NCBI GenBank assembly: GCA_040218735.1
Contig: JAVJQW010000050.1
Location: 192,001 to 256,000, forward strand
DNA length: 64,000 nucleotides
Reading direction: 5' to 3'
Origin: Deltaproteobacteria bacterium
Lineage (GTDB): Bacteria > Myxococcota > Kuafuiibacteriia > Kuafuiibacteriales > Kuafuiibacteriaceae
A model generated the notes under the pieces. It had not been told where the DNA came from. It saw only the letters and a program-made list of their open reading frames with translations, and ran no database searches. How positions within the stretch are numbered: position 1 is the first letter of the stretch; each line of letters starts with the position of its first letter. The position numbers were made by a program, and so were the translations under genes. Below are positions 38,004 to 64,000 of this stretch, in pieces.

Positions 38004-38022
38004 TGTGACACCACGATGACAC
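38004..38022 (-). promoter_or_regulatory. Pho-box/OmpR-type direct repeat
   Basis: Minus strand GTGTCAT-CGTG-GTGTCAC, 11-bp period, similar to the CTGTCAT-N4-CTGTCAY consensus. Confidence 0.45.
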
Positions 38023-38882
38023 GCTCAACACATTGCGGAGATATTCCGCGGACGCAGCCAGGCTCGACGACGATCCGGAGGATCGTCGCGGGGAAGACCG
38101 CCCGCAGGATCGTCGCGGGTGCGATCGCCGTCGCGGCCCTCGGCCTGCCGATCCCCCACACGGAGGCGGGTGACCTCGATCGGGCGATCCAGCTGGTCCT
38201 CAAGATGAATACGGCTGCAGCGCAGTCGCAGAAGAAGGTCGACAAGCTCGACGACCAGAAGACGGACCTGCTGAACGAGTTCCGAGCCGTGCAGCAGCAG
38301 ATGGCTTCGATCCGGGATTACAACGCCCAGGTCCAATCGCTGGTCGACGCCCAGGAGACCCAGGCGAACGACCTGCAGCGCCAGATCGACGACGCCACGT
38401 CGGTCGGACGGGGTGTGACCCCGATGATGCTGCGGATGATCGAGTCGCTCAAAGCGTTCGTGGACCTCGACGCGCCCTTCCTCCTCGAGGAGCGGCGCTC
38501 GCGCGTCACGCAGCTCGAGAAGCTCATGGCCCGCGCGGACGTCACCGAAGCGGAGAAGTACCGGCGGATCACCGAGGCCTACCAGATCGAAAACGAGTAC
38601 GGCCGCACCATCGAGGCCTACCGCGGCACCCTGGAGGGTGAGGGGAGCGACGGTCGTACGGTCGAGTTCCTCCGCGTCGGCCGCGTCGTCCTCGTGTACC
38701 GCACGTTCGACGGCGAAGAGCTCGGCGTCTGGGACCAGACCAACCGCAAGTGGGTCCCGCTCGGCGCCGACTACAAGAAGGCGATCAAGGACGGCTTCCG
38801 GATCGCTCGCAAGCAGGCCGCGCCGAACCTCTTCCGCGTGCCGGTCGCCGCGCCGCAGAAGGCGCAGGAGGCCACGCCGTGA
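38016..38882 (+). CDS. DUF3450 family protein (TtpB-like)
   Basis: Signal-like segment, coiled coil, DAPFLLEERRSR, AEKYRRITEAYQIENEYGRTIEAY, FLRVGRVVLVY. Confidence 0.88.
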   Translation: MTRSTHCGDIPRTQPGSTTIRRIVAGKTARRIVAGAIAVAALGLPIPHTEAGDLDRAIQLVLKMNTAAAQSQKKVDKLDDQKTDLLNEFRAVQQQMASIRDYNAQVQSLVDAQETQANDLQRQIDDATSVGRGVTPMMLRMIESLKAFVDLDAPFLLEERRSRVTQLEKLMARADVTEAEKYRRITEAYQIENEYGRTIEAYRGTLEGEGSDGRTVEFLRVGRVVLVYRTFDGEELGVWDQTNRKWVPLGADYKKAIKDGFRIARKQAAPNLFRVPVAAPQKAQEATP

Positions 38883-40303
38883 AACATCGCATCCTCTGCA
38901 GCAGCCTCCTCGCGCTCGGCCTCGCCGCTCCGACGGCGGCGCGCGCGCAAGCGCCCTCGCTCGACGCCCTCCTCGCGAAGGTGAAGAAGGGCTACCGCGA
39001 AGACGGCAAGGAACTCGCCGCGCGCGAGGCCGAGTTCAAGCGCGACCGCGACAAACAAGCCAAGCTCCTCGCGGACGCGAAGAAGGCGCTCGCCGCCGCC
39101 GAGGCGCGCAGCACCGCGCTCGAGCGCAAGTTCCAGGACAACGAGGTTCGGCTCACGGAGCTCGAGGCCACGCTGCGCACGCGCCTCGGCACGATGGGTG
39201 AGCTGTTCGGTGTCGTGCGTCAGGTCGCGGGCGACACGGTCGTCCAGCTCGACACGTCGATGGTGAGCTCGCAGCTCCCGGGCCGCGGGGCGAAGATCGA
39301 AAAGCTCGCGCAGAGCGAAGCGCTCCCCTCGATCCAGGAGCTCGAGCACCTGTGGTTCACGCTGCAGCAGGAGATGACGGAGTCCGGCAAGGTCGTTCGG
39401 TACTCCGCGACGGTCATCGACGACGTCGGCAAGAAGACGCAGCAGGAGGTCGTCCGCGTCGGCACGTTCAACGCGATCGGCAACGGCGGCTACCTGCAGT
39501 ACCTCCCCGACGTCCAGCAGCTCGCCGTGCTCGCAAGGCAGCCTGCGGATCGTTACCTCTCCGCGGTGCGCGAGCTCGAAGGCTCCAGCTCGGGCTTCGT
39601 CCGCTTCCCGCTCGATCCTTCACGCGGCGCGATCCTCGGACTGTTGATCGAGACGCCGAGCGTCGAAGAGCGCGTGCAGCTCGGTGGTGTCATCGGCTAC
39701 GTCGTGCTCGGCCTCGGCGCGTTCGCGCTGTTGATCGGCCTGCTGCGGTTCTTCGGGCTGCTGCTCACGGACATGAAGATCCGCGCGCAGCTTCGGAGCA
39801 AGACCGCCAACGACAACAACCCGGTCGGTCGTGTGCTCAAGGCATTCGAAGCGAACCGCCACCTGAGCCTCGAAGACCTCGAGCGCAAGCTCGACGAAGT
39901 CATCGTGCGCGAAGCCGCCCGCCTCGATCGGTTCCTGTGGATCGTGAAGGTCGTCGCGGTCTCCGCACCGCTGCTCGGTCTGCTCGGCACCGTCACCGGC
40001 ATGATCCGCACGTTCCAGGCGATCACGCTGTTCGGCACCGGCGATCCGAAGCTGATGGCCGGCGGCATCTCCGAGGCGCTCGTCACCACGATGCTCGGGC
40101 TCGTCACCGCGATCCCGCTCGTCCTGATCCACGCGATGCTCCAGAACCTGAGCCGTCGGATGCAGGACATCGTCGACGAGCAGGCCGCCGGGGTCGTCGC
40201 GACGCGCGCCGAGGAAAACGCCGCGCCCAAGGCGCCGCCGCCGCCCGCTGCGCCGCCTGCGCCGCCGGCCGCGCCGGTCCCCGCCGGGGGGGTGGATGCC
40301 TAG
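38879..40303 (+). CDS. TtpC-like long MotA/TolQ/ExbB proton-channel protein
   Basis: Signal peptide, coiled coil, LGTMGELFGVVRQ, VVRVGTFN, LDPSRG, APLLGLLGTVTGMI.TFQAITLFGTGDPKLMAGGIS.ALVTT; GTGA overlap. Confidence 0.9.
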   Translation: MKHRILCSSLLALGLAAPTAARAQAPSLDALLAKVKKGYREDGKELAAREAEFKRDRDKQAKLLADAKKALAAAEARSTALERKFQDNEVRLTELEATLRTRLGTMGELFGVVRQVAGDTVVQLDTSMVSSQLPGRGAKIEKLAQSEALPSIQELEHLWFTLQQEMTESGKVVRYSATVIDDVGKKTQQEVVRVGTFNAIGNGGYLQYLPDVQQLAVLARQPADRYLSAVRELEGSSSGFVRFPLDPSRGAILGLLIETPSVEERVQLGGVIGYVVLGLGAFALLIGLLRFFGLLLTDMKIRAQLRSKTANDNNPVGRVLKAFEANRHLSLEDLERKLDEVIVREAARLDRFLWIVKVVAVSAPLLGLLGTVTGMIRTFQAITLFGTGDPKLMAGGISEALVTTMLGLVTAIPLVLIHAMLQNLSRRMQDIVDEQAAGVVATRAEENAAPKAPPPPAAPPAPPAAPVPAGGVDA

Positions 40304-40820
40304 CTTCGCCGATCTCTACGAGGAGTTCCTCGCGTTCATGGACCTCGGCGGTGCCGTGGCCTGGCCGCTGCTCTTCGTGACTTTGATGATGTGGACGCTG
40401 ATCGTCGATCGCTTCTGGTACGTCTGGCTCAACCACCCGAAGGTCCGGAAGCGGATCGTCGGCGAGTGGACGGCCCGCGCCGAGCGCGACTCCTGGTACG
40501 CGAACCACATCCGGCGGCGCCTCATCTCCGAGGCGATGGTCGACTACAAGCGCGGCCTCATCGTGCTGCAGTCGCTCGTCGCGGTGTGCCCGCTCCTCGG
40601 TCTGCTCGGCACCGTGATGGGGATGCTCGAAGTGTTCGACGTCGTCGCGGTCTCCGGTAACGGCAACGTCCGCGCGATGGCGGCGGGCGTCTCCGAAGCC
40701 ACCGTCTCCACCATGATCGGCATGGTCATCGCGCTGTCCGGTCTCTACTTCCAAGAGCGACTGCGCCGCGGCGCGAACGCCGAGCGTCGTCGTCTCGAAG
40801 ACGCGCTGCCCACGACCTGA
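40296..40820 (+). CDS. exbB: ExbB (TonB2-type short MotA/TolQ/ExbB)
   Basis: CPLLGLLGTVMGM..VFDV, MAAGVSEATVSTM.G. Confidence 0.9.
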   Translation: MPSFADLYEEFLAFMDLGGAVAWPLLFVTLMMWTLIVDRFWYVWLNHPKVRKRIVGEWTARAERDSWYANHIRRRLISEAMVDYKRGLIVLQSLVAVCPLLGLLGTVMGMLEVFDVVAVSGNGNVRAMAAGVSEATVSTMIGMVIALSGLYFQERLRRGANAERRRLEDALPTT

Positions 40821-40829
40821 GGTCCATCG

Positions 40830-41237
40830 ATGAGAAGCCGCAGAGTTAGGGAAGAGGAAGACAACGGGATCGACATCACCCCGATGATCGACATCGTCTT
40901 CATCATGCTGATCTTCTTCATCGTCACCGCCTCCTTCATCAAGGAGTCCGGGGTCGAGGTGAATCGCCCGGGCGCGGTGACGGCGGAGCGCAAGGAGCGC
41001 GCGTCGATCCTCGTCGCCATCGACGAAAACGATCAGGTCTGGGTCGACAAACGGCCGGTCGACGTCCAGGCGGTGCGCGCGAACATCGAACGCCTGCGCG
41101 CCGAGAACCCCGAAGGCGGCGTGGTCATCCAGGCCGACACCAAATCCAAGAACGGCATCCTCGTGAAGGTTCTGGACGCCGCGAAGCTGGCGGGCGTCGA
41201 TGACGTCTCGCTCGCCGCGACGCCCATCGGAGAGTGA
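40830..41237 (+). CDS. exbD: ExbD
   Basis: IDITPMIDIVFIMLIFFIVTASF; VVIQAD; VKVLDAAK.AGV. Confidence 0.93.
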   Translation: MRSRRVREEEDNGIDITPMIDIVFIMLIFFIVTASFIKESGVEVNRPGAVTAERKERASILVAIDENDQVWVDKRPVDVQAVRANIERLRAENPEGGVVIQADTKSKNGILVKVLDAAKLAGVDDVSLAATPIGE

Positions 41238-41240
41238 GTG

Positions 41241-41846
41241 ATGGTTCGGGTGGGTGCATCAGTGCTGATCGCCGTGGGCGTGACCTATGGGTTGTTCACG
41301 TTCATGCGCCTGCTCGTCGCGATGACCGACATGGGTCTTCAGGAGTACGACAAGCGCAAGCAGATCGATCTGTTCCGCGTCCGCCAGGACAGCCGCGCCG
41401 AGACCAAGAAGCGCGAGCTACCGATGAAGGCGAAGGCCGAAAAACCTCCGGAGACACCCAAGTTCGACATGTCGAACTCAGGTGGCCCGGGCGCGCAAGC
41501 CATCGCCGTGTCCGCGCCGAAGATCGAGACGTCCGTCGCGCTCAAGGGTGGGTTGAACCTGGGGGCGGCCCCGGCGGACACCAACGCGGTGCCGGTGGTG
41601 CGCGTCGAACCCATCACGCCACGGCGTGCTCAAGTCGAGGGCATCGAGGGCTGGTGCCTCGTCAAGTTCGACATCAGCACGACCGGGGCAACCCAGAACG
41701 TGAAGGCGAGCTGCCAACCCCGAGGCATCTTCGAGCGGGCCACCGAGACCGCCGTGAAAAAATGGAAATACAAACCCAAGGTCGTGGACGGGAAGGCGCT
41801 CTTGCAGCGCGGCCTGAAAGTGAAGTTGAGCTTCAAGCTGGACTGA
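41241..41846 (+). CDS. tonB: Short energy transducer TonB
   Basis: N-terminal TM; PVVRVEP..P.RA...GIEGWC.V.FDI...G...NV; KWKYKP; about 201 aa. Confidence 0.9.
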   Translation: MVRVGASVLIAVGVTYGLFTFMRLLVAMTDMGLQEYDKRKQIDLFRVRQDSRAETKKRELPMKAKAEKPPETPKFDMSNSGGPGAQAIAVSAPKIETSVALKGGLNLGAAPADTNAVPVVRVEPITPRRAQVEGIEGWCLVKFDISTTGATQNVKASCQPRGIFERATETAVKKWKYKPKVVDGKALLQRGLKVKLSFKLD

Positions 41847-41847
41847 G

Positions 41848-43092
41848 ATGATGCGGCTCGGACCCATTCTCTTTCTCCTCGTGGTGTCGGCGATGCCGGC
41901 ACGCGTACGTGCGGAGGAGGAGAAGGAGCAGTTCGAAAATCAGTACACGATGCGGCCCGAGGTGTACGAGCGCCTCAACAAGGCGCAAGAAGCGCTCAAA
42001 GAGAACCGCTACAAGGCGGCGATCGCGGACCTCGACAAGATCCTGCGGCGGATGCGCCCCAACCCCTACGAAAAGGCGCTCTCCCTGCAGACGCTCGGTT
42101 ACGTGTACGCGAACCAGGAGAAGCTGAAGGAGGCCGCGGAGACGCTCGCCGAGTGTCACGCGCTGAACGCCCTGCCCCCCTCCACGCAGATCAGCCTGAT
42201 GTACAACATCGGCCAGCTCCACCTCGCCGCGCAGAACTACGCGCTGGCGGTGGCGGCGTTCGACGCGTGGATCGCGGAGTCGAAGAACCCGAACGCGACC
42301 TCGCTCTACACGGTCGCGGCCGCGAACTATCAGGCGAAGAAGTTTCAGCGCGCGACCTACTACGGCGAGCGGGCGCTGAAGATGACGAAGAAGCCGAAGG
42401 ACTCGCTCCTGCAGCTGTTGCTCTCGGCGTACGTGGAGCAGAAGCGCTATCGGCCCGCGGCGAAGATCCTCACGCAGCTCATCGAGCGCCGCCCCGACAG
42501 CCGCAACAACTGGCTGCAGCTCGCGGCGATGTACGCGCAGCTCGGCGAAGAGAAGAAGGCGCTCGCGGTCATGCAGTTGGCCCACGAGGCCAAACTCTTG
42601 AATCGCGGGGATGAGATCGTGCAGCTCGCGCAGCGTTTCCTCGCGGAAGAAATTCCGCTCGCGGCGGCGAAGCTGCTCGAGGAAGCGATGAAGCAGGGCA
42701 CGGTCCCGAAGAACGCGCGCACGACGCGCATGCTCGCGACGGCCTGGTACCAGTCGCGAGACAACAAGCGGGCGGCGCCCGCGATGGAGCGAGCGGCGAA
42801 GCTCGCCAAAGACGGAGATCTCTATTTCCGCCTGGCACAGATCCACATGCAGGAAGAGCAGTGGAGTCAGGCAGCCAGCGCCTGTGAAAAGGCGTTGGCA
42901 AAAGGGGGACTGCCGAGCGCAGGACAGGTCCATCTTCTGATGGGCATTGCCTTGGTTCGGCAGAACAAGAATGCGCGCGCGAAGCGTGCGTTTACGAAGG
43001 CATCGCAGTTCTCTGCGGTGAAAGGGCCCGCTAAGGGTTGGTTGAAGTTTCTGTCGAGCGCCGCTGCCTCAGCGGCGGCGGTGCAGAACTGA
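41848..43092 (+). CDS. Periplasmic TPR protein (TtpD-like)
   Basis: Signal peptide and multiple TPR helices; sits after tonB as in TonB2 operons. Confidence 0.85.
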   Translation: MMRLGPILFLLVVSAMPARVRAEEEKEQFENQYTMRPEVYERLNKAQEALKENRYKAAIADLDKILRRMRPNPYEKALSLQTLGYVYANQEKLKEAAETLAECHALNALPPSTQISLMYNIGQLHLAAQNYALAVAAFDAWIAESKNPNATSLYTVAAANYQAKKFQRATYYGERALKMTKKPKDSLLQLLLSAYVEQKRYRPAAKILTQLIERRPDSRNNWLQLAAMYAQLGEEKKALAVMQLAHEAKLLNRGDEIVQLAQRFLAEEIPLAAAKLLEEAMKQGTVPKNARTTRMLATAWYQSRDNKRAAPAMERAAKLAKDGDLYFRLAQIHMQEEQWSQAASACEKALAKGGLPSAGQVHLLMGIALVRQNKNARAKRAFTKASQFSAVKGPAKGWLKFLSSAAASAAAVQN

Positions 43093-43138
43093 AATTTAGT
43101 TGGGGTTTGGTCAGATTAAGACCGGAACGAGGGAGTCG

Positions 43139-46276
<3,138 letters not shown>

Positions 46277-46288
46277 GGAGGGATGAAC

Positions 46289-47659
46289 ATGCGACAAGTC
46301 ATGAGAAAATCCGCAGTTTCCGTCGCGTTCTTACTCGCGGCGGCGGGGTGCGGCGATGCCAATCGCCCGGTCTACCCGTCGTACGACCAGACGCTCCTGG
46401 AGCTCGCCAAGGCCAACTCGAACCTGAGCACCTTCGTGGAGCTCGTGGGGACGGCCGAGCTCGAGCCGGCGCTGGACGACACGACGGGCGTCTACACGGT
46501 GTTTGCACCGACCAACGCGGCGTTCTCCGCGCTGTCGGGCGTCGACACCACGATGAAGGACGTCGTGAACCCGATCCTTCGGTACCACACGTTCGGCGGC
46601 ACGCTCCCGTTCTCGCTCATCGGGCGCGGCGGCGAGTTCAAGACGATCACGGCCACGGTCGTGTCGTTCGTGCCTTCGCCGGCGATGCTGCCGGAGGGGA
46701 CGGACGTGCGGGCGCCCGGGAACACGACGCTCGTGCTCCGGAACTCGCTCGGCACCGCGAACTACGTCGAGGGTGACGTGTACGCTTCCAACGGCATCCT
46801 GCACATCATCGACGCGGTCATGATTCCGCCGACGGAGCCGGACGAGCCGGACCCGCCGGGGCTCTTGCTCGCGGAGGCCGAAGAGGCCGGCTTCTCGGCC
46901 GTGGTCAGCGCGATCATGGGTGTGGGTCTGCAGGCCGCGCTCGACGGCGCCGGTCCGTTCACGCTGTTCGCCCCGTCGGACGCTGCGCTCGGCGCGGTGG
47001 ACCTGTCGATGGCGGACGACGCGATCGTGCAGAACATCCTGCTCGGCCACGTGGTCGCGGACGACGTGGACTCGGACGCGGTGCTCGCAGCGACGTCGCT
47101 CGACACGCTCAACAACCTGTCGGCCGCGGTCGACGGCGCGATGATGACGGTCGGGGGCGCGGCGCTCGACGCCGACGCGCTCGACATCGAAGCGAGCAAC
47201 GGTCGGGTGCACGGCCTCGACGATGTGATCGTGCCTCCGACGGCGGCCGAGCTCATCGCGTCGGACGCGTCCCTGAGCTCGCTCGACACCGCGCTCACCC
47301 GCGCGGCGATCGCGGCGGCGGACCCGGACACGCTCGGCGGTGACACGCCGATCACGCTGTTCGCGCCCACCGACGCGGCGTTCACGGCGGCGGGGATCGA
47401 CACCTCGATGGTGGACACGGCCACGCTGACGGCGGTGCTCGGTCACCACCTCGTGACGTCGGGTCAGGCGCTCGCGGGTGACCTCACCGACGGCCAGACG
47501 ATCACGACGGCGAACGGCGACCTCACGGTCAACGTCGACGGCGAAGGCAACGTCTCGCTGACGGACGGCGCGGGCGGCACGGCGAACGTGCTGCGGAGCG
47601 ACCTCCGGACGCTCAGCGGCGTCGTGCACACCATCGACGCGGTCCTCCTGCCGCAATAG
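46289..47659 (+). CDS. Fasciclin (three FAS1 domains) lipoprotein
   Basis: Lipobox AAAGC; three T(V/L)FAP(T/S)(N/D)AA ... G..H.(I/L)D.V..P units; AGGAGG RBS. Confidence 0.92.
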   Translation: MRQVMRKSAVSVAFLLAAAGCGDANRPVYPSYDQTLLELAKANSNLSTFVELVGTAELEPALDDTTGVYTVFAPTNAAFSALSGVDTTMKDVVNPILRYHTFGGTLPFSLIGRGGEFKTITATVVSFVPSPAMLPEGTDVRAPGNTTLVLRNSLGTANYVEGDVYASNGILHIIDAVMIPPTEPDEPDPPGLLLAEAEEAGFSAVVSAIMGVGLQAALDGAGPFTLFAPSDAALGAVDLSMADDAIVQNILLGHVVADDVDSDAVLAATSLDTLNNLSAAVDGAMMTVGGAALDADALDIEASNGRVHGLDDVIVPPTAAELIASDASLSSLDTALTRAAIAAADPDTLGGDTPITLFAPTDAAFTAAGIDTSMVDTATLTAVLGHHLVTSGQALAGDLTDGQTITTANGDLTVNVDGEGNVSLTDGAGGTANVLRSDLRTLSGVVHTIDAVLLPQ

Positions 47660-47722
47660 TCCTGCGGGACCTTCGGCGCGCGGGGTTGCGATCCCGCGCG
47701 CCTCTCCTTCACTGTCAAAGGC

Positions 47723-47980
47723 GTGAAACGTCGCGCCGCCTTCCTGCTAACCTCGATGATGGCCCTGGCGCTCGGCGCCTGCGCCTCGTTCCAGCCCGGC
47801 TCGACACCGAACCTCAACTACGAGGGTCCGGTCGCGACCGGGTCGAAGCTCTACAAACATCAGAGCGGGCGCACGACGAACGCGACGCCCTCGAAGGTTC
47901 GGGTGCTCACGGCGTGGGAGCTCGGCACCGCGGGGAGCCCAACCGTCGGCCGCGCGCTCTCGCGCCCCGGCATCCAATAG
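47723..47980 (+). CDS. Small lipoprotein resembling a TonB box and plug N-terminus
   Basis: Lipobox LALGAC; VATGSKL and TPSKVRVLTAWELGTAGSPTVGRALSRPG align by eye with the plug N-termini of both receptors in this window. Confidence 0.7.
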   Translation: MKRRAAFLLTSMMALALGACASFQPGSTPNLNYEGPVATGSKLYKHQSGRTTNATPSKVRVLTAWELGTAGSPTVGRALSRPGIQ

Positions 47981-48068
47981 TGCCTTCCGCTAGGCTGAGG
48001 CCGGTCGCGAATGCGGCCGGTCCGAAGACTGTGCCAAGGCGGTCCGCGAAGCGGAGCGGCGTTATGGC

Positions 48069-48428
48069 TTAAGAGGCGCTGTCGTCGGCCTGCGTGGCGG
48101 TCTGCGCGATCGTCTGCGCCGGTCGACCCGGGAGATCGAGCGCGGGCATCTCGATGCACGTCGGGACGTCGATCCGCGCGACGGGGTGCGGTGTCCGGAT
48201 GTCGACCTTGCCGGTCGACTGGCGCCACAGCTCGTGCTCGAGCTCCGCGCGGGCGAGCGCGGCGTCGCGCGAGCGTGAAAGCTCCGCCGCGATCTGACAG
48301 CGCGCCGAGTAACAGGCCGCCTCGGGGGGGACGAGCGCGGGAGGCGTCAGTCCGAGCGCCCAGACCAGGGGGTGAGCCGCGAGCATCGCACCGAAGAACA
48401 TGGTGTCAGCGTACGGATCGCCTCTCAT
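48069..48428 (-). CDS. Hypothetical small protein (start may be ATG 48401)
   Basis: Fills the gap divergent from the sensor kinase; hydrophobic N-terminus; CYSARC. Confidence 0.55.
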   Translation of the reverse strand: MRGDPYADTMFFGAMLAAHPLVWALGLTPPALVPPEAACYSARCQIAAELSRSRDAALARAELEHELWRQSTGKVDIRTPHPVARIDVPTCIEMPALDLPGRPAQTIAQTATQADDSAS

Positions 48429-48434
48429 CGCCGA

Positions 48435-48496
48435 ATCACGCGCCGGTCACGGTTCGGTCATGCCGGACGATTTTCGGGCCGTGATACTTCCGTGAC
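48435..48496. promoter_or_regulatory. OmpR/PhoB-type direct-repeat boxes in both orientations
   Basis: ATCAC/GTCAC/GTCAT at 48435/48446/48457 (11-bp period) and inverted GTGAT/GTGAC at 48481/48492. Confidence 0.5.
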
Positions 48497-48519
48497 ATGG
48501 ACCGCGATATCATCGGTCC

Positions 48520-50547
48520 GTGAAGCTCGACTCCCAGGGGCGGAGGGCCCGCCAGGTCGTGCTTTTAGTGATCGCCATGATCGCCCTGCCCTCCGTCGCG
48601 CTCACCGCGCTGGCGATCGCGGCGATCGAAAACGAGGAGGCCGCCGCGCGGAAGCGGCTCGAGGTCGCGTACCTACCGGTCCTCTCCGCGATGGCGAAGC
48701 GCTTCAACGATCGCCTCGACGGGATCGTCCAGGACACACCGCCCGCGCTGCACGCGCTGCTCGAATGGTCGGAGTACGCCGCCGACGTCTCCGACCTCGC
48801 ACCGCTGGACACGTTCCGAGAGGAGACACCGTTCGCGACGAACTACTTCGTCATCGACGACGACGGGAACGTGCTCTTCCCTCGAAACCACGGCGCGAGC
48901 TGCGAAGCCCCGTGGTCACGCGTCGCGAACCGACACATCGAGGCCTGTCAGGGCAGCGCCTGTGACTGCACGGCGATCGCCGACCTCGCTGCGCACCCCG
49001 ATCTGTACGGCCGAAACCACTGCGCCGCACGCTACGCCGCCGCGCTCTGCCGCGCGGAGCAGGACGGCGCGCTCGCACCGGTGCCGAGCTGCCTGAAGGA
49101 CTCGAAGCTCGCCGAGGCCTCGATCGCGCTGTCGTCGCGTTGGCTCAAACACCCGGACGATCAGATGCGCGCCAGCGCGGCGCTGCAGCTCGCGAAGAAG
49201 ATGTCCGCGCCGCAGGCCGAAGCCGAGGACGTCATCGGCCAGGTGAACATGTGGTGGTTCGTGCCGCGGCTGCGGCAGCTCGACCGCCCCGACAGCGACT
49301 CCGCGCTCGGCCTCCTGCAGGCGATGGGCACACGCGCGCCCTTCCTCGACGCGATGGCGACGCTCTCGAAGAACCGCGACGGTCCGCCGATGGTGTGGTC
49401 GTGGTCGGTCGACGGGCTGCGGCGCGTCGTCGTGCTGCAGAGCGTCGAGGGGTACCTCACCGGGTACGAGCTCACGCCGGAGGGCTTTCAGGACTACGTC
49501 GCGCAGGGCCTCGCGGAGCTGGAGCTCGAGACGCGTACGCGTGTACACCTGCTGCCGATCGAAGCGCCGCGGAACGCCTACCGGGCGTACATGGAGCGCT
49601 ACAAGGACCAGGTGGCTTCGTGGTCCCTGCTCGCGAAGACGCAGCTGGCGTGGGAGCTCGTGATCCTCCTCGACGACGAGGGGGTGTTCTTCGACCTCGT
49701 GCACCAGCGCGCGACGCTCTACATGTGGGGCCTCGGTCTCGTCGTCCTCGCGCTGCTCGGCGGCATCGGCTACACCGTCAAGGCGGTGCTGGCGGAGGCA
49801 CGAGAGTCGCGGCTGAAGACGGACTTCGTGTCCAGCGTGTCGCACGACCTGAGGACGCCGCTGACCTCGATCCGCATGTTCACGGAGAGCCTGTTGATGG
49901 GGCGCGTGGACGGGGAAGAGGACATCCGCGAGAGCCTGACGGTGATCGCGTCCGAGACCGAGCGGCTGTCGCGGCTCACCGAGCGCATCCTCGACTTCTC
50001 GCGGATGGAGGCCGGGCGGAAGGCGTACGTGTTCGAGCCGACGTCGGTGGCCGCGGTGGTCACCCACGCGATGAACGCGTGTGCGCCGATGATCGCGTCG
50101 TCCGACTTCGAGGTCGCGGTCGAGGTCGAACCGGGGCTACCGGACGTCCTCGGCGACAAGGACGCGCTCATCGAGGCGCTCATCAACCTGATCACCAACG
50201 CCGTGAAGTACAGCGTGGACGACCGCTCGATCACGGTCGAAGCCAAACACGAAGATGGTGAGGTCGTGCTCGCCGTGTCGGATCGTGGGATGGGGATCTC
50301 ACGCGCCGACCAGCGTCGCATCTTCGAAAAGTTCTATCGTGTGGACTGCCGTCGAACCTCAGAGGTGGGGGGCTGCGGGCTCGGGTTGAGCCTCGTCCGT
50401 CACATCGTCGAGGCACACGACGGGATGCTCTCGGTCGTCAGCACGCTCGGGGAAGGCAGTACGTTCACGATCCGGCTGGCCAAGTTCGAGCGCCGGCCGC
50501 TCGTGGAGCTCGTGGGGGAGAAGTCGTGGAATCAATCCTCGTCGTAG
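48520..50547 (+). CDS. Membrane sensor histidine kinase with large Cys-containing periplasmic domain
   Basis: Two TM helices; FVSSVSHDLRTPLTSIR, NLITNAVKYS, DRGMGI, FEKFYRV, GCGLGLS. Confidence 0.92.
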   Translation: MKLDSQGRRARQVVLLVIAMIALPSVALTALAIAAIENEEAAARKRLEVAYLPVLSAMAKRFNDRLDGIVQDTPPALHALLEWSEYAADVSDLAPLDTFREETPFATNYFVIDDDGNVLFPRNHGASCEAPWSRVANRHIEACQGSACDCTAIADLAAHPDLYGRNHCAARYAAALCRAEQDGALAPVPSCLKDSKLAEASIALSSRWLKHPDDQMRASAALQLAKKMSAPQAEAEDVIGQVNMWWFVPRLRQLDRPDSDSALGLLQAMGTRAPFLDAMATLSKNRDGPPMVWSWSVDGLRRVVVLQSVEGYLTGYELTPEGFQDYVAQGLAELELETRTRVHLLPIEAPRNAYRAYMERYKDQVASWSLLAKTQLAWELVILLDDEGVFFDLVHQRATLYMWGLGLVVLALLGGIGYTVKAVLAEARESRLKTDFVSSVSHDLRTPLTSIRMFTESLLMGRVDGEEDIRESLTVIASETERLSRLTERILDFSRMEAGRKAYVFEPTSVAAVVTHAMNACAPMIASSDFEVAVEVEPGLPDVLGDKDALIEALINLITNAVKYSVDDRSITVEAKHEDGEVVLAVSDRGMGISRADQRRIFEKFYRVDCRRTSEVGGCGLGLSLVRHIVEAHDGMLSVVSTLGEGSTFTIRLAKFERRPLVELVGEKSWNQSSS

Positions 50548-59539: not shown

Positions 59540-60388
59540 CTACGGGAGCGAAAGCGGCTCGTTGCAGCTGCCGTGGACCACGATCCGCCCCTCCGACGCC
59601 GGAGTGATGGGCGAGTTGGCCTCGATGTCCGCGCGGATCGACGCAACCCAGTCCATCTCGGCGTGGCCGATGAAGTAACGATCCGTGACCTCGCCGAGGG
59701 CGAGGAAGCCGTCACGGCCGTCCGCGAGGAAGCTGTTCAGGCCCACGGCGATCGACACGTCGGCGAGTAGGTCGATGTCGTTCTCGCGGTCGAAGATGAC
59801 CTCGCCGTGCAGCTCGATACGGCGGATGCGCGTGCCCGGCGTCTCGATGGCGTCACCTGTCGCGTTGATCACCTGGCGCTGCCCCGCGCAGTCGATCTCG
59901 TAGTGAAGCCCCGCCGAAGGGTGGAGGAGCCAGCCGCCGCCGAGGTTCGCGAGGTCGGCCGGGAGCGCCGAGGCGCTCCGCTCGAGGACCTCGAGGAGGA
60001 CGACGCCGTCGATCTGCATGACGACCTGGTCGTTCGAGAAGGGGAGCCACCCCGCGACATCGATGTCGGTCAGGTCACCCGCCGGATACACCTGCCCGCG
60101 CGCCGCGCCCGGCGTGAGGAACGTGAACGTCGTCTCGTCGACCGGACCGCCGCGAATGGCGCCGGCGTTCACGAGCGACACGTCGACCGGGTGACCGTGC
60201 GCCGCGAAGTCGGAGCCGAGGACGTCCGCGATGTAGTTACCGATCGCGGCCTCGCCGGCGTGGGTCGTCTCGACGCGTGTGTCGATGTCGACGCTCGTCT
60301 GACCGATGACCGTCCCTTCGACGACCGGCGCTTCGCCGCCGCTGCACGCGCCGAGCAAGAGAACCGAGATGGGTATGTATTTCTTCAT
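59540..60388 (-). CDS. Lipoprotein consisting only of a 5'-nucleotidase C-terminal (substrate-binding) domain
   Basis: Lipobox LLGAC; EAAIGNYIAD, NAGAIRG, LPFSN, NSFLADGRDGF, EGRI; no metallophosphatase motifs; GGAG RBS. Confidence 0.88.
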   Translation of the reverse strand: MKKYIPISVLLLGACSGGEAPVVEGTVIGQTSVDIDTRVETTHAGEAAIGNYIADVLGSDFAAHGHPVDVSLVNAGAIRGGPVDETTFTFLTPGAARGQVYPAGDLTDIDVAGWLPFSNDQVVMQIDGVVLLEVLERSASALPADLANLGGGWLLHPSAGLHYEIDCAGQRQVINATGDAIETPGTRIRRIELHGEVIFDRENDIDLLADVSIAVGLNSFLADGRDGFLALGEVTDRYFIGHAEMDWVASIRADIEANSPITPASEGRIVVHGSCNEPLSLP

Positions 60389-60412: not shown

Positions 60413-62611
60413 TCACTTGAAGCGTACGGTCGCTCCCAGGTACGCCCACCACGAGCTCGCCGGAATCTGGCGCTCACCGTACGCGCGCCAGACGGGCAGT
60501 TTTTTGTCGATCGGCACCGCGACAGTCGCCGCGAGCGCGATCTTGTCGTCCAGCAACCGGTACGTGGCGTTGCCGCGCAGCTCGTGGTGCGCGGGGCGGA
60601 CGTACTGGAAGACGAAGGACTCGAATTGGAAGCGTGAGTTGTTGCGACTCTCGCTCATGTACGCGTGCGACAGCCCCACGGTGAGCGGCGTCCACGGCCG
60701 CATCACCAAAGAGGTGTTCACGCGCAGCTCCGGCAGATCGGTGAGGTGTCGGTTCGTGAACTTCAGATCGTTGAACTGCTCGTACCCGTCGAGGCCCTCC
60801 CCCGTCTGGCGACGGTAGGCGTAGCTCACGTTGGTCTCGAGGTAGTTGTCCGCGTCGAGCAGCAGACGAATCTCACCCTCCGCACCGAAGATTTCCTGAC
60901 CCGGGAAGTTCTCGACGTCTCGGAAGTTCAGGTTCGACGTGGGGTCCGGCGCGATGACGTCGTTGGTCACCGTGTAGAACGACGCGACGCGCAGCTGCAC
61001 ACGATCGTGCGGCCGCCAGTCGACACCGAGCTCGACCGCGTTCGTGACCTCGGGCCTCAGATCTTCGTCACCGCGAACGCGGTACCCCGTCGGAGTCAGC
61101 GACGTGTAGTCGTACAGCTCCGCGAACGTCGGCGCGCGGAACGCTCGGCCGTAGAGCGCCTTGAGCGTGAACCGCTCGTGCGGCGCCCAGATCAGCGCGA
61201 TGCGCGGGTTCAGTGAGCTGCCGAAGTCGCTGTATGCGTCGAACCGAAGGCCCGCCGTCAGCCACAACGCATCGAGGAGCGCGACCTCGGCCTGCACGAG
61301 CGGCGCCACCAACGTACGCGTCGCTCCGCGCTGCTCCAACGGGAGCCCGTCGTGGTTGGCGAAGGTGTCGCGACTTCCGTCGGTCGCGAAGTTCTGTCCG
61401 TACGTGAAGCTCGGCAACCAGTCGTGCTCGACCTGGAAGCCGGCGAGCAGCCGCAGGCGATTCACGACGCTCCCCTGGTACTCGCGCGTGAACACCAGGT
61501 GGGAACGCGCCGCCAACCGCATGGCTTCGTACTCGCGACGCCGAATCTTGCCGTCCGCGTAGCGTTCGATCGCCGACACCTCGCCGTCGCCGTTGGCGTC
61601 GAAGAAGTACCCGTCGGGCTGATCTTGGATCCGCTCGTCGACGAGCTGCACGTCGTAGCTCAGGCGTGTTCGGAGCTCGACGTCGTCCGCGATGTCGATG
61701 TCGTGCGCGACGTAGCTCGATGAGATCATCCGCTGCACGTTCGACTCCGGCGTGAGCGTCGCCGACGCGCCGAAGTACGGGCCGTGCCGATCGAGCACGA
61801 ACACCGAACCCAGCTGCACCGTGTCCGCGTCCGCGAACACGCCCGTGCGACTGGCCACGATCTGCGCGAGCCCCGTGGCGAGCGGGAGCGAAGTCATACC
61901 GGGCGTCGCGCCGTACGGTCGGCCCGACGCCGCGTCCTCTTCGACCTTCACCTTCGGACCCGTCGACTCCCGGTACTGACCGAACGTCGAGAGCCGCCAC
62001 TGTCCGCGCCGCGCGCGATATTCGAGGCCGATTCGACCGCCGTACCCGAGCTCGTCGTCGACGTTGGCGTCACCCGCGGCGGTGAGCACACCGACGCTCC
62101 CCTCGTCCGGCGCGCCGCGCGTGACGATGGAGATGACCGCGGAGAAGGCGTTGGTTCCGTAGAGCGCCGAGCCCGGGCCACGGATGACCTCGATGCGCTC
62201 GACATTGGCGAGCAACAGCCGCGGGACGAAGTGTCCGTCGTAGAAGTCGTTGAGGGGCTGACCGTCGAGGGTGACGAGGATGTTGGCTTTGTTCTGAACG
62301 CCGCGGACGGCGACGATCAGATCGCCGAACTGGTCGTCGAGCACGGTCATGCCCGGAACGAGGCGGAGCGCATCGGCGAGGGTGAGGAGACCGAGCTGCT
62401 CGATCTGCTGGGCCGTAATCACGGACATCGTGGACGGCGCACGATCGATCGAGCGCTCGCCGAGGGTCGCCGAGGTGACGCGCACCGAGGTGAGCTCCTC
62501 CAACGACAGGTCCATGAGGTCGTTCACCTCGTCATCCAGGGATTGCGGATCGCCGGCGCCCGCCAGCGCCCATGCGATGGCGAGCAACGGCATGGCTTGC
62601 ACCGTCCTCAT
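60413..62611 (-). CDS. TonB-dependent receptor (DLSLEEL-type N-terminus)
   Basis: DLMDLSLEELTSVRVTSA, VERIEVIRGPGSALYGTNAFSAVISIVT, GLRFDAYSDFG..NPR, FRAPTFAELY, DLRPE, terminal VRFK; ATGA coupling to the kinase. Confidence 0.93.
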   Translation of the reverse strand: MRTVQAMPLLAIAWALAGAGDPQSLDDEVNDLMDLSLEELTSVRVTSATLGERSIDRAPSTMSVITAQQIEQLGLLTLADALRLVPGMTVLDDQFGDLIVAVRGVQNKANILVTLDGQPLNDFYDGHFVPRLLLANVERIEVIRGPGSALYGTNAFSAVISIVTRGAPDEGSVGVLTAAGDANVDDELGYGGRIGLEYRARRGQWRLSTFGQYRESTGPKVKVEEDAASGRPYGATPGMTSLPLATGLAQIVASRTGVFADADTVQLGSVFVLDRHGPYFGASATLTPESNVQRMISSSYVAHDIDIADDVELRTRLSYDVQLVDERIQDQPDGYFFDANGDGEVSAIERYADGKIRRREYEAMRLAARSHLVFTREYQGSVVNRLRLLAGFQVEHDWLPSFTYGQNFATDGSRDTFANHDGLPLEQRGATRTLVAPLVQAEVALLDALWLTAGLRFDAYSDFGSSLNPRIALIWAPHERFTLKALYGRAFRAPTFAELYDYTSLTPTGYRVRGDEDLRPEVTNAVELGVDWRPHDRVQLRVASFYTVTNDVIAPDPTSNLNFRDVENFPGQEIFGAEGEIRLLLDADNYLETNVSYAYRRQTGEGLDGYEQFNDLKFTNRHLTDLPELRVNTSLVMRPWTPLTVGLSHAYMSESRNNSRFQFESFVFQYVRPAHHELRGNATYRLLDDKIALAATVAVPIDKKLPVWRAYGERQIPASSWWAYLGATVRFK

Positions 62612-64000
62612 GACGCTGCCCTCCTCGTTGCCTCGTGTGCCGCCTCCGCGATGCGCGTGAGCGTCTCCAGGAGCGCTGCGCGGTCGATCGGCTTCGAGAG
62701 GTAGTCATCCATGCCCGCGTCGATGCAGCGGCCACGATCTTCAGGCAGCGCTTCGGCGGTTAGCGCGACGATCGGGATCGAGGCCCGGTCGTCTTCGAGC
62801 GCGCGGATGGCCGCGGTCGCTTCGTACCCGTCCATCTGCGGCATCTGGCAGTCCATCAACACCAGGTCGTACGCGCCGACCTGCACCGCCTCGACGGCGA
62901 GCCGCCCGTTGTCGACGACGACACACACACAGTCGATCGCCTCCAACATCCGCAGAGCGACCTGCTGGTTGACCTTGTTGTCCTCCGCGACGAGCACCGA
63001 GACCTGACGCCCGCCGTCGATCCGCGGGACCGTCGCCACGCGCGGCCCCGCGGCGATCTCGCCGGTGGGCTCCGCGACAAGAGCATCCGCCACATCACGG
63101 CGACGCGGCGGCGCGACTACGGTGCTCTGCGCCCACGGCCGCTTCGCGACGCTCTCTCCGAGGCGCACCAACGGCACCCACCGCACCGCTTCGAGGTCGG
63201 GGTCCGACGCGATTCGCGCGTCGAGCGCGGCGAATCCGCCGACGGCCGTCGGCGCCACGAACACCGCGCGCGGCGTCGCTACGCCTTCGTCGAGCCACGA
63301 ACGCAGCGCATCCAGGTCACCGAAGCCGACGGCTTCGCAGCCGAGCGAGATGAGATCGTCGAGCAGCGCCTTGCGTGCGACGGCGTTGTCGTCGAGCACC
63401 GCTGCCCACCCGGACCGCAGCGCGCGCATCCCCGTGCTCGACTCGAGAGAGCCCTCCGCCATCGGGAGCTCGACGATGAAGCGGGACCCCTCACCGACGT
63501 TCGACTCGACATCGATGCTCCCGCCGAGGCCCTCGGTGAGCTTCTTGGTGATGGCGAGCCCCAGCCCCGTGCCGCCGAAGCGGCGCGTGTTGGACACGTC
63601 GACCTGCGTGAACGCCGAGAACAGCGCTTCGATCCGGTCCTCGGGGATGCCGATTCCGGTGTCTTCGACGATGAATCGCATCGAACGGCCGTCCGACGCG
63701 CGCTCGACCGCGAGGAGGACGTGGCCTTCATGCGTGAACTTGATCGCGTTGCCGACGAGGTTGATCAGGATTTGACGCAGACGCGTTGGGTCCCCGACCA
63801 GCCCCTCCGGCACCGACGGATCGATCGAGACGATCAGTCGAATGTCTGCTTCCTGAGCACGCGTGATCACCACGTCGCGCACCGCTTCGATCGAAGCGCG
63901 CACGTCGAACGCGATGCTCTCGAAGACCATGCGCCCGGCGTCGATCTTCGAGAAGTCGAGCACGTCGTTGACGACCGTGAGGAGGAGCTCGGCCGACTGC
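62608..64000 (-). CDS. Hybrid histidine kinase (HisKA-HATPase-degenerate REC-REC); 5' end outside the window
   Basis: Open to the window edge ([19 protein letters not shown]); [42 protein letters not shown]. Confidence 0.92.
   Translation of the reverse strand, partial: QSAELLLTVVNDVLDFSKIDAGRMVFESIAFDVRASIEAVRDVVITRAQEADIRLIVSIDPSVPEGLVGDPTRLRQILINLVGNAIKFTHEGHVLLAVERASDGRSMRFIVEDTGIGIPEDRIEALFSAFTQVDVSNTRRFGGTGLGLAITKKLTEGLGGSIDVESNVGEGSRFIVELPMAEGSLESSTGMRALRSGWAAVLDDNAVARKALLDDLISLGCEAVGFGDLDALRSWLDEGVATPRAVFVAPTAVGGFAALDARIASDPDLEAVRWVPLVRLGESVAKRPWAQSTVVAPPRRRDVADALVAEPTGEIAAGPRVATVPRIDGGRQVSVLVAEDNKVNQQVALRMLEAIDCVCVVVDNGRLAVEAVQVGAYDLVLMDCQMPQMDGYEATAAIRALEDDRASIPIVALTAEALPEDRGRCIDAGMDDYLSKPIDRAALLETLTRIAEAAHEATRRAAS

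Follow-up and report, generated by a model that had tools for sequence, protein, structure and literature searches.

A small lipoprotein gene at the end of a TonB locus in Kuafuiibacteriaceae and the moderately supported likeness of its family to the N-termini of TonB-dependent receptors

How TonB finds, engages and leaves outer-membrane receptors is still debated. The window analysed here is a stretch of 64,000 nucleotides from Deltaproteobacteria bacterium (Myxococcota; Kuafuiibacteriaceae; assembly GCA_040218735.1, contig JAVJQW010000050.1, positions 192,001 to 256,000 of the forward strand), in which a small gene at 47723-47980 is the last + strand gene of a locus encoding DUF3450, ExbB, ExbB, ExbD, TonB, TPR, receptor and fasciclin proteins. 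A first-pass annotation had read its product as a free-standing lipoprotein resembling a TonB box and the first elements of a receptor plug. The small open reading frame (ORF) is a real coding gene under some constraint, it starts with a lipoprotein signal, and the likeness of its family to receptor N-termini is moderately supported via its one homologue, P0010, and a profile-profile alignment. The explanation tentatively favoured, although we place it somewhat short of an even chance, is that of a young gene of narrow range for a small outer-membrane lipoprotein, which would have arisen from the 5' end of a receptor gene and may dock weakly to TonB as a tether or competitor. The parts of the gene on which the argument turns are the following.

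47723..47980, + strand: small lipoprotein gene (P0001/P0005), 85 amino acids; GTG start at 47723, TAG stop at 47978-47980.
47723..47782, + strand: lipoprotein signal peptide, residues 1-20, with lipobox LGAC and Cys20; a pattern match, with the Cys kept in P0010 (LFSGC).
47828..47848, + strand: TonB-box-like motif PVATGSK, residues 36-42; PVVTGSR in P0010 and paired by hhalign with the VVT[AG]SR columns of 13 receptors.
47888..47974, + strand: block like the first plug strand and helices, residues 56-84, PSKVRVLTAWELGTAGSPTVGRALSRPGI; from BLASTP, from hidden Markov model (HMM) alignments to plug-profile positions 16-51 and from hhalign.

The protein of 85 amino acids with a lipobox followed by VATGSK has the sequence quoted in the first-pass annotation and its frame is confirmed; the translation runs M/VKRRAAFLLTSMMALALGAC, then ASFQPGSTPNLNYEGPVATGSKLYKHQSGRTTNATPSKVRVLTAWELGTAGSPTVGRALSRPGIQ, and after the lipobox PVATGSK...TPSKVRVLTAWELGTAGSPTVGRALSRPGIQ. 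With a G+C content of 68% in the window, where many spurious ORFs overlap, the first alternative to be considered is that of a chance open frame in G+C-rich DNA, which the short length, the lack of a convincing Shine-Dalgarno spacing before the GTG and the fact that none of the 22 runs holding the stretch is on record as RNA would favour. On the other hand, G+C over the three codon positions of 47723-47980 is 0.605/0.593/0.884, the third-position value (GC3) of 0.884 comparing with 0.85-0.93 in the receptor, fasciclin, TonB, TPR and ExbD genes; the other ORFs over the same DNA lack a gene-like codon-position G+C, and the only antisense frame with the same third positions is broken, being split into two ORFs. 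Equally, a lipobox is present, and DNA contigs of the runs X4, X9 and X20, which represent three studies and strain-level assemblies, cover 47723-47980 without a listed insertion or deletion. Among the substitutions listed for X9 (40 more are unlisted), at least 14 lie inside the ORF, 9 of them at codon position 3 (binomial P 0.017), and of 13 codons affected 9 are changed synonymously and 4 non-synonymously; set against 69.7 synonymous and 185.3 non-synonymous sites, this amounts to a per-site ratio of roughly 0.17, which is indicative only. This substitution pattern suggests purifying selection. The protein or variants at least 90% identical to it have been called in 5 assemblies, one of them a metagenome-assembled genome at NCBI where the entry is named 'hypothetical protein'. 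Because GC3, the frame intact in other strains, the mostly synonymous listed changes and a homologue at E 8e-13 agree, the small ORF is regarded as a real gene and a chance frame as very improbable.

The N-terminus consists of a charged n-region KRR, a hydrophobic core and LALGAC with Cys20, and in MKRRAAFLLTSMMALALGAC the n-region, h-region and lipobox of a lipoprotein are found together, with the Cys inside positions 15-35. The lipobox rule used, [LVI][ASTVI][GAS]C with the Cys at position 15-35, is an own implementation of the pattern of PROSITE PS51257, and it accepts 203 of the 27,303 ORFs of 60-120 amino acids in the genome (0.74%). By the sorting rule of E. coli, Ala at +2 would send the small lipoprotein to the outer membrane, of which the inner leaflet is the predicted location.

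When 1.84 billion representative proteins were scanned in full with HMMER, without length limits, the only other match was P0010, a protein of 77 amino acids with 54% identity (E 8.3e-13), and no longer form of the family was present at E<=0.001; word-indexed searches with the single protein and with the alignment returned the same two clusters only. P0010 reads ...LFSGCAALEFRPGATPDLGYDGPVVTGSRTLKNPRLAKKSTETSSNIRVLSAQEIATAGSPTVGRALGRLPYTRTP and retains the lipobox Cys, VVTGSR and IRVLSAQEIATAGSPTVGRAL, such that a homologue keeping both the lipobox and the TGS motif, as expected from the first-pass annotation, does exist. A first block common to both homologues is F.PG.TP.L.Y.GPV.TGS and a second RVL.A.E..TAGSPTVGRAL.R.P, while the linker between these conserved blocks is variable and contains an insertion or deletion. 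The family is tiny, comprising one species-level cluster and one relative, and the gene has a very narrow distribution and is probably young. Among relatives, weak matches in G025 (E 0.0036) and G032 (E 0.0076) were rejected as spurious, as they are unrelated frames devoid of the motifs; an internal stop interrupts one of them, and the plug profile gives no score for either. Searches of genome and metagenome contig collections with the mature protein and with P0010 found no encoding locus.

The likeness to receptors emerges at the level of the family. Two profiles were built separately, the first from 13 receptor N-termini of the own genome and the second from 25 receptor N-termini of other genomes (27 extracted, 2 badly aligned rows dropped). 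The first, searched against 86,303 sequences, places P0010 directly after the 13 receptors (25.9 bits, E 4e-5), the next non-receptor having 15.2 bits; with the second, P0010 stands directly after 8 receptors as the best non-receptor (18.4 bits, E 0.0069). Alignment of a five-row family alignment to the 13 receptor N-termini by hhalign gave E 4.4e-5 at a probability of 69%, pairing residues 34-84 with columns 13-59, from the TonB box to the VPG motif, with one linker insertion of 5 residues. Furthermore, V[AV]T[GA][ST][RK] followed after 5-20 residues by P..[VI].[VI][LIV], a pattern defined post hoc, occurs 4 times in 17.6 million six-frame residues, 2 of them in receptors. The by-eye alignments of the first-pass annotation are reproduced, with single-comparison E values that are not above chance when taken alone: BLASTP aligns residues 37-79 with 156-193 of the neighbouring receptor (43100-46276; 12/43 identities, E 0.069) and residues 50-79 with 53-82 of the receptor at 60413-62611 on the - strand (E 0.024), where 10/30 identities and no gap replace the 11 identities and one gap noted before. 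Both alignments fall at the start of the Pfam Plug matches of these receptors (167-279 and 56-159). From the comparisons taken together, the mature protein probably descends from a receptor N-terminus.

As side observations on these comparisons, the receptor gene at 60413-62611 (-) overlaps by 4 bases with the gene before it on its strand, which encodes a hybrid histidine-kinase/response-regulator (62608-63963), and is followed by a gene for a protein with a 5'-nucleotidase C-domain (59540-60388). Three long frames of the genome, C4:38593-41268(-), C24:119561-121963(-) and C61:468833-472024(-), score just below the receptors with the plug profile; those of C4 and C24 start with a putative stretch resembling a TonB C-domain as judged by eye, after which a plug-like region follows in C4. 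The Pfam Plug (PF07715) matches of the genome include receptor-type frames of 801-1064 amino acids with a Plug match starting at model position 24-28.

Several results weigh against the favoured explanation, starting with the sequence likeness itself. Membership of the Pfam Plug family, PF07715, is given by a match at or above the gathering score of 23.9 bits; the window's protein P0001 has no match at E<=1, P0010, P0006 and P0008 have none at E<=10, and among the 18 places in the whole genome returned by PF07715 at E<=10 the small ORF is not included. A profile match to the plug N-terminus, as anticipated in the first-pass annotation, is consequently absent with Pfam Plug, while the two receptor N-terminus profiles and hhalign do pick up the family. 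For the window's own protein the first profile gives 10.0 bits (E 3.6, rank 33 of 86,303) and the second 7.1 bits (E 22, rank 84), such that the receptor likeness of this protein alone is not above chance, and the hhalign probability is only 69%. In reciprocal searches the best receptor reaches rank 197 of 67,010 (E 94) with the family HMM and rank 1205 with the mature part of P0005 in phmmer, and the neighbouring receptor reaches rank 21 (E 13) with P0010 in phmmer. A profile search of PDB sequences had 0 matches at E<=10. The plug likeness is limited to about 35 of the 107 Plug positions, and there is no barrel; a complete plug of about 107 positions with a four-stranded sheet inside a 22-strand barrel is not what this gene encodes.

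These same results feed a second alternative, in which a real lipoprotein of unrelated origin resembles receptors by chance or by convergence on a short strand-helix motif. Its strongest arguments are the chance-level scores of the window's protein, reciprocal searches that leave receptors off the top, the lack of any match for the protein or its relatives in Pfam, NCBIfam and PHROGs or among PDB sequences, and a best score of 0.79 in the ESM Atlas, which is chance level. Against it stands the fact that P0010, which was found purely by homology, tops the non-receptors with two separately built receptor profiles, and that hhalign covers both motifs in the right order and with receptor-like spacing; the rarity of the combined motif, half of whose occurrences are receptors, points the same way within the limits of a post hoc pattern. 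An unrelated origin is accordingly rated as rather unlikely.

If a receptor was the source, the derivation is not a recent one. Recent truncation of a full receptor is rejected, as a genome search found no DNA-level paralogue of the small ORF and the frames of 47600-48600 hold no plug-like translation besides the small ORF itself. Since there is neither a paralogue nor a downstream plug trace, and since the gene is conserved, a decayed receptor remnant, which would have spoken against the first-pass annotation, is unlikely: three other strain-level assemblies carry the frame uninterrupted, the change is synonymous in 9 of the 13 affected codons, and the homologue at 54% identity is of the same size. 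Equally, a split receptor that needs the small protein in trans is unsupported, the neighbouring receptor having its own TonB box and a full Plug match.

The TonB-box-like motif presents a further point of weighing. The local receptor consensus, drawn from the 13 own-genome and 25 related receptors, is [ED][EDQ][VIL]VVT[AG][ST]R; P0010 with DGPVVTGSR matches 7 of its 9 positions and the window's protein with EGPVATGSK 5 of 9, plus K for R, the C-terminal part of the motif being retained in both. In both homologues V[AV]TGS is immediately preceded by Gly-Pro, whereas receptors carry a polar residue followed by an aliphatic one there, and a Pro in the column of Pro36 is found in 0 of the 13 own-genome and 0 of the 25 related receptors. 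The aligned position in BtuB is L8, where a change to proline is a classical uncoupling mutation. Should the motif pair with TonB at all, the strand would be shorter and probably weaker than that of a receptor. In FhuA, I9P places a proline in the TonB box and abolishes function (PMC9586334), and proline substitutions in TonB boxes likewise abolish coupling (PMC11658791). On the other side, local secondary structure is reported to outweigh side chains in TonB-box activity (PMC11658791) and TonB box peptides designed against TonB have been reported (PMC9841981), which by analogy lends docking some plausibility.

Distribution adds to the points on the negative side. The family profile has no match in the 19 other genomes searched of its class and order, and a single-protein search in 60 relatives revealed no homologue. 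In the orthologous locus of the relative G004, with 58% identity in TonB and 57% in the fasciclin protein, no homologue follows the fasciclin gene, which means that the TonB system works in relatives that dispense with the small lipoprotein. A different small ORF stands after the fasciclin gene there, on the opposite strand (L012, G004:C55, 1208-1438 (+); 76 amino acids, GC3 0.94), which has a signal-peptide-like N-terminus and no similarity to the window's small protein.

A third alternative shares the receptor origin and departs from the favoured explanation in function: a real lipoprotein derived from a receptor 5' fragment would carry its receptor-like motifs as inherited baggage, with another role or none and without engaging TonB. 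It is a serious possibility, though on balance unlikely, and it accommodates the Pro at the TonB-box position seen in 0 of 38 receptors, the further drift of the window's copy from the receptor consensus than that of P0010 (A38, K42, W65, G68), the missing gene in relatives that keep the same TonB locus, and a strong hairpin that sets the small gene apart from the upstream operon. It accommodates less well that the TonB-box-like and plug-start blocks are what is best conserved between homologues of 54% identity while the linker was free to vary, that the substitutions suggest purifying selection, and that the gene closes a TonB locus whose other genes share its strand.

In the explanation tentatively favoured, weak TonB docking by a receptor-derived lipoprotein, the mature part of 65 residues would probably stem from the 5' end of a TonB-dependent receptor gene, with the receptor signal peptide replaced by a lipobox. 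Three elements would have been retained, namely the TonB-box-like strand PV[AV]TGS[KR], a linker that varies, and the part of the plug with its first strand and helices, [VI]RVL.A.E..TAGSPTVGRAL.R.P. A lipid tether would hold the protein at the periplasmic face of the outer membrane, from where an unfolded mature chain would display a weakened TonB box and then the first plug elements; the weakened box could be offered to the C-terminal domain of TonB, whose gene lies six kilobases upstream, and as a docking or competitor site of low affinity it might tune how the motor of the locus engages its receptor. The real gene, the lipobox and the two conserved blocks are the supported steps, with moderate support for the receptor likeness, and from these the outer-membrane location, the contact with TonB and an effect on transport are extrapolated. 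An AF2 model of low confidence (mean pLDDT 53.8, pTM 0.14), in which short helices at 64-68 and 73-79 interrupt what is mostly coil, fits a fragment unable to fold alone, and shows no more than that; alone, the small protein is probably unfolded. A complex prediction of residues 21-85 with the TonB C-domain (108-202) scored 0.01 with controls not folded and counts neither way. The function as decoy, tether or trans-acting plug piece is pure inference; because of the conserved Pro in the motif and the very narrow distribution of the family, the reading of a TonB function is weakened and is left with modest odds. The broadest version, a new type of accessory for TonB systems, appears doubtful. 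In it, a TonB box derived from the 5' end of a receptor gene, free-standing and anchored by lipid together with the first plug elements, would serve at the outer membrane as a low-affinity parking or competitor site for the C-terminal domain of the motor, or would be pulled by TonB, and in either case would tune the sharing of a dedicated TonB2-type motor with its receptor.

The position of the small gene at the end of a TonB locus, as stated by the first-pass annotation, is borne out by the Pfam matches of the upstream genes. The locus and its downstream border are composed as follows.

38016-38882, + strand: DUF3450 protein (Pfam).
38750-40303, start uncertain, + strand: large MotA/ExbB-family protein (Pfam).
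40296-40820, + strand: ExbB (Pfam).
40830-41237, + strand: ExbD (Pfam).
41238..41846, + strand: TonB, with TonB_C at residues 128-201 (Pfam TonB_C 6.2e-12).
41848-43092, + strand: TPR protein after TonB (Pfam).
43100..46276, + strand: TonB-dependent receptor with Plug and barrel, TonB box ELMVTGSR (Pfam Plug 3.7e-24, barrel 3.2e-32).
46283..47659, + strand: lipoprotein with three fasciclin domains and the N-terminus ...LLAAAGC, directly upstream of the small gene (Pfam Fasciclin 7.7e-56, 3 stretches).
47675..47702, + strand: G+C-rich hairpin of 12 bp without U tract, possible terminator or attenuator, between the fasciclin stop and the small gene.
48069-48428, - strand: next gene downstream, without Pfam match, on the opposite strand.

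TonB orthologues are present in 7 of 20 relatives at E<=1e-10. The receptor at 43100-46276 has an extension of about 110 residues before its TonB box (residues about 44-150; 43100-43600), which is acidic, rich in Ala, Glu and Lys and contains repeats of the EAEKAKM type; orthologous receptor frames in relatives are likewise about 1000-1090 amino acids long, and we know of no described role for such an N-terminal receptor extension. Fasciclin genes form tandem arrays and have many paralogues in 17 of the 19 other genomes searched in the family; of 21 genomes from the phylum's other families, 0 have them.

The RNA fold of 47655-47730 has -37.6 kcal/mol (z -3.72), a stability reached by 0 of 200 shuffles, and consensus scans found neither a promoter nor a terminator. 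Because of the hairpin and the lack of consensus signals, transcription of the small gene may come from read-through, at a reduced level, or be independent. Fasciclin gene and small gene share a frame, with one TAG and 21 sense codons between them and an open frame of 106 amino acids after the stop; as regards a read-through extension of the fasciclin protein, the spacer has the strong hairpin and the small ORF a signal peptide of its own, and the shared frame is probably a coincidence. On the other flank, the colinearity between strains stops exactly after the stop codon of the small gene, the 88 bases 47981-48068 being replaced by 27 (X9) or 16 (X20) other letters. This spacer holds a repeat of about 79 bp at 47990-48068 with 52 further blastn matches genome-wide (77-99% identical) and, in run X9, a contig depth about 20 times that of its flanks; it looks like a small mobile element, or one resembling repetitive extragenic palindromes or miniature inverted-repeat transposable elements (REP/MITE-like), with insertion polymorphism.

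If the small protein bound TonB, it would represent a natural TonB-box competitor or tether that is encoded genetically, and it would give simple access to the question of how TonB engages its receptors; if its proposed origin is true, it would exemplify a new gene assembled from a lipobox and roughly the first 60 codons of a receptor gene. Without TonB binding, what is left is a small lipoprotein specific to its lineage. The general importance is limited either way, because the family consists of one species-level cluster and one relative.

Among described systems, the gene set of the locus is that of the Vibrio TonB2 system (TtpB/TtpC/ExbB2/ExbD2/TonB2/TtpD), with which it shares the same Pfam families, namely DUF3450, large MotA/ExbB, ExbB, ExbD, TonB and TPR; to our knowledge, the described Vibrio TonB2 system has no small lipoprotein of such a kind. 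A literature search over titles and the beginnings of abstracts brought up no free-standing lipoprotein with TonB box and plug fragment, which is not proof that none is in print.

With the N-terminus of TonB-dependent receptors (PF07715) the small protein has in common, in the same order and with matching spacing, an acidic residue, V-V/A-T-G-S-R/K, a linker and P..V.V[LI]...E[IL]...G..T[VI]G.AL...P(G). It differs in that only about 35 of the 107 Plug positions are covered before it stops, in the lack of a barrel, in the lipobox which takes the place of an ordinary signal peptide, in the Pro inside the TonB-box-like motif and in the 5-residue linker insertion, and compared with the Plug family it remains below every curated threshold; if it has a function of this sort at all, this would be as a carrier of a TonB box.

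Llp of phage T5 and the Cor family resemble the small protein in being small lipoproteins that reside in the inner leaflet of the outer membrane, where they target a TonB-dependent receptor from within the periplasm (PMC9586334; bioRxiv 10.64898/2026.03.26.714494). They inspire a fourth alternative, in which the small protein mimics a plug on the receptor and has no dealings with TonB, docking from the inner leaflet of the outer membrane at the periplasmic face of the neighbouring receptor and occupying or jamming the site vacated by the N-terminal plug elements that TonB has pulled out, as Llp jams FhuA. It would make sense of a protein that corresponds to the first plug elements of a receptor and of a gene located two genes after a receptor, and a precedent exists in a small lipoprotein which, from the periplasm, engages a TonB-dependent receptor in a transport-intermediate state (PMC9586334). 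This alternative is nevertheless quite improbable: P0001 and P0010 match 0 PHROGs families at E<=1 and have no sequence relation to Llp/Cor or other phage families, and the neighbouring receptor has its own complete N-terminus. The only Cys of the small protein is the lipidated one, leaving no second Cys for a disulphide of the Llp type, whereas an intramolecular disulphide is conserved in Llp/Cor (PMC9586334). Moreover, the small gene is chromosomal and at a TonB locus, with no phage context seen, and mimicry of a TonB box is not a property of Llp.

TonB boxes outside nutrient receptors are found in colicins and pyocins (PMC11658791), and a potential TonB box has been described on the Glt outer-membrane module of Myxococcus with GltA/GltB (PMC9946355). 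The small protein resembles these in carrying a TonB-box-like motif on an unstructured N-terminal stretch of a protein that is not a nutrient receptor. However, colicins, pyocins and GltA/GltB are large and possess other functional domains, while here the TonB-box-like piece and the start of a plug constitute the whole of a mature protein that is anchored by lipid.

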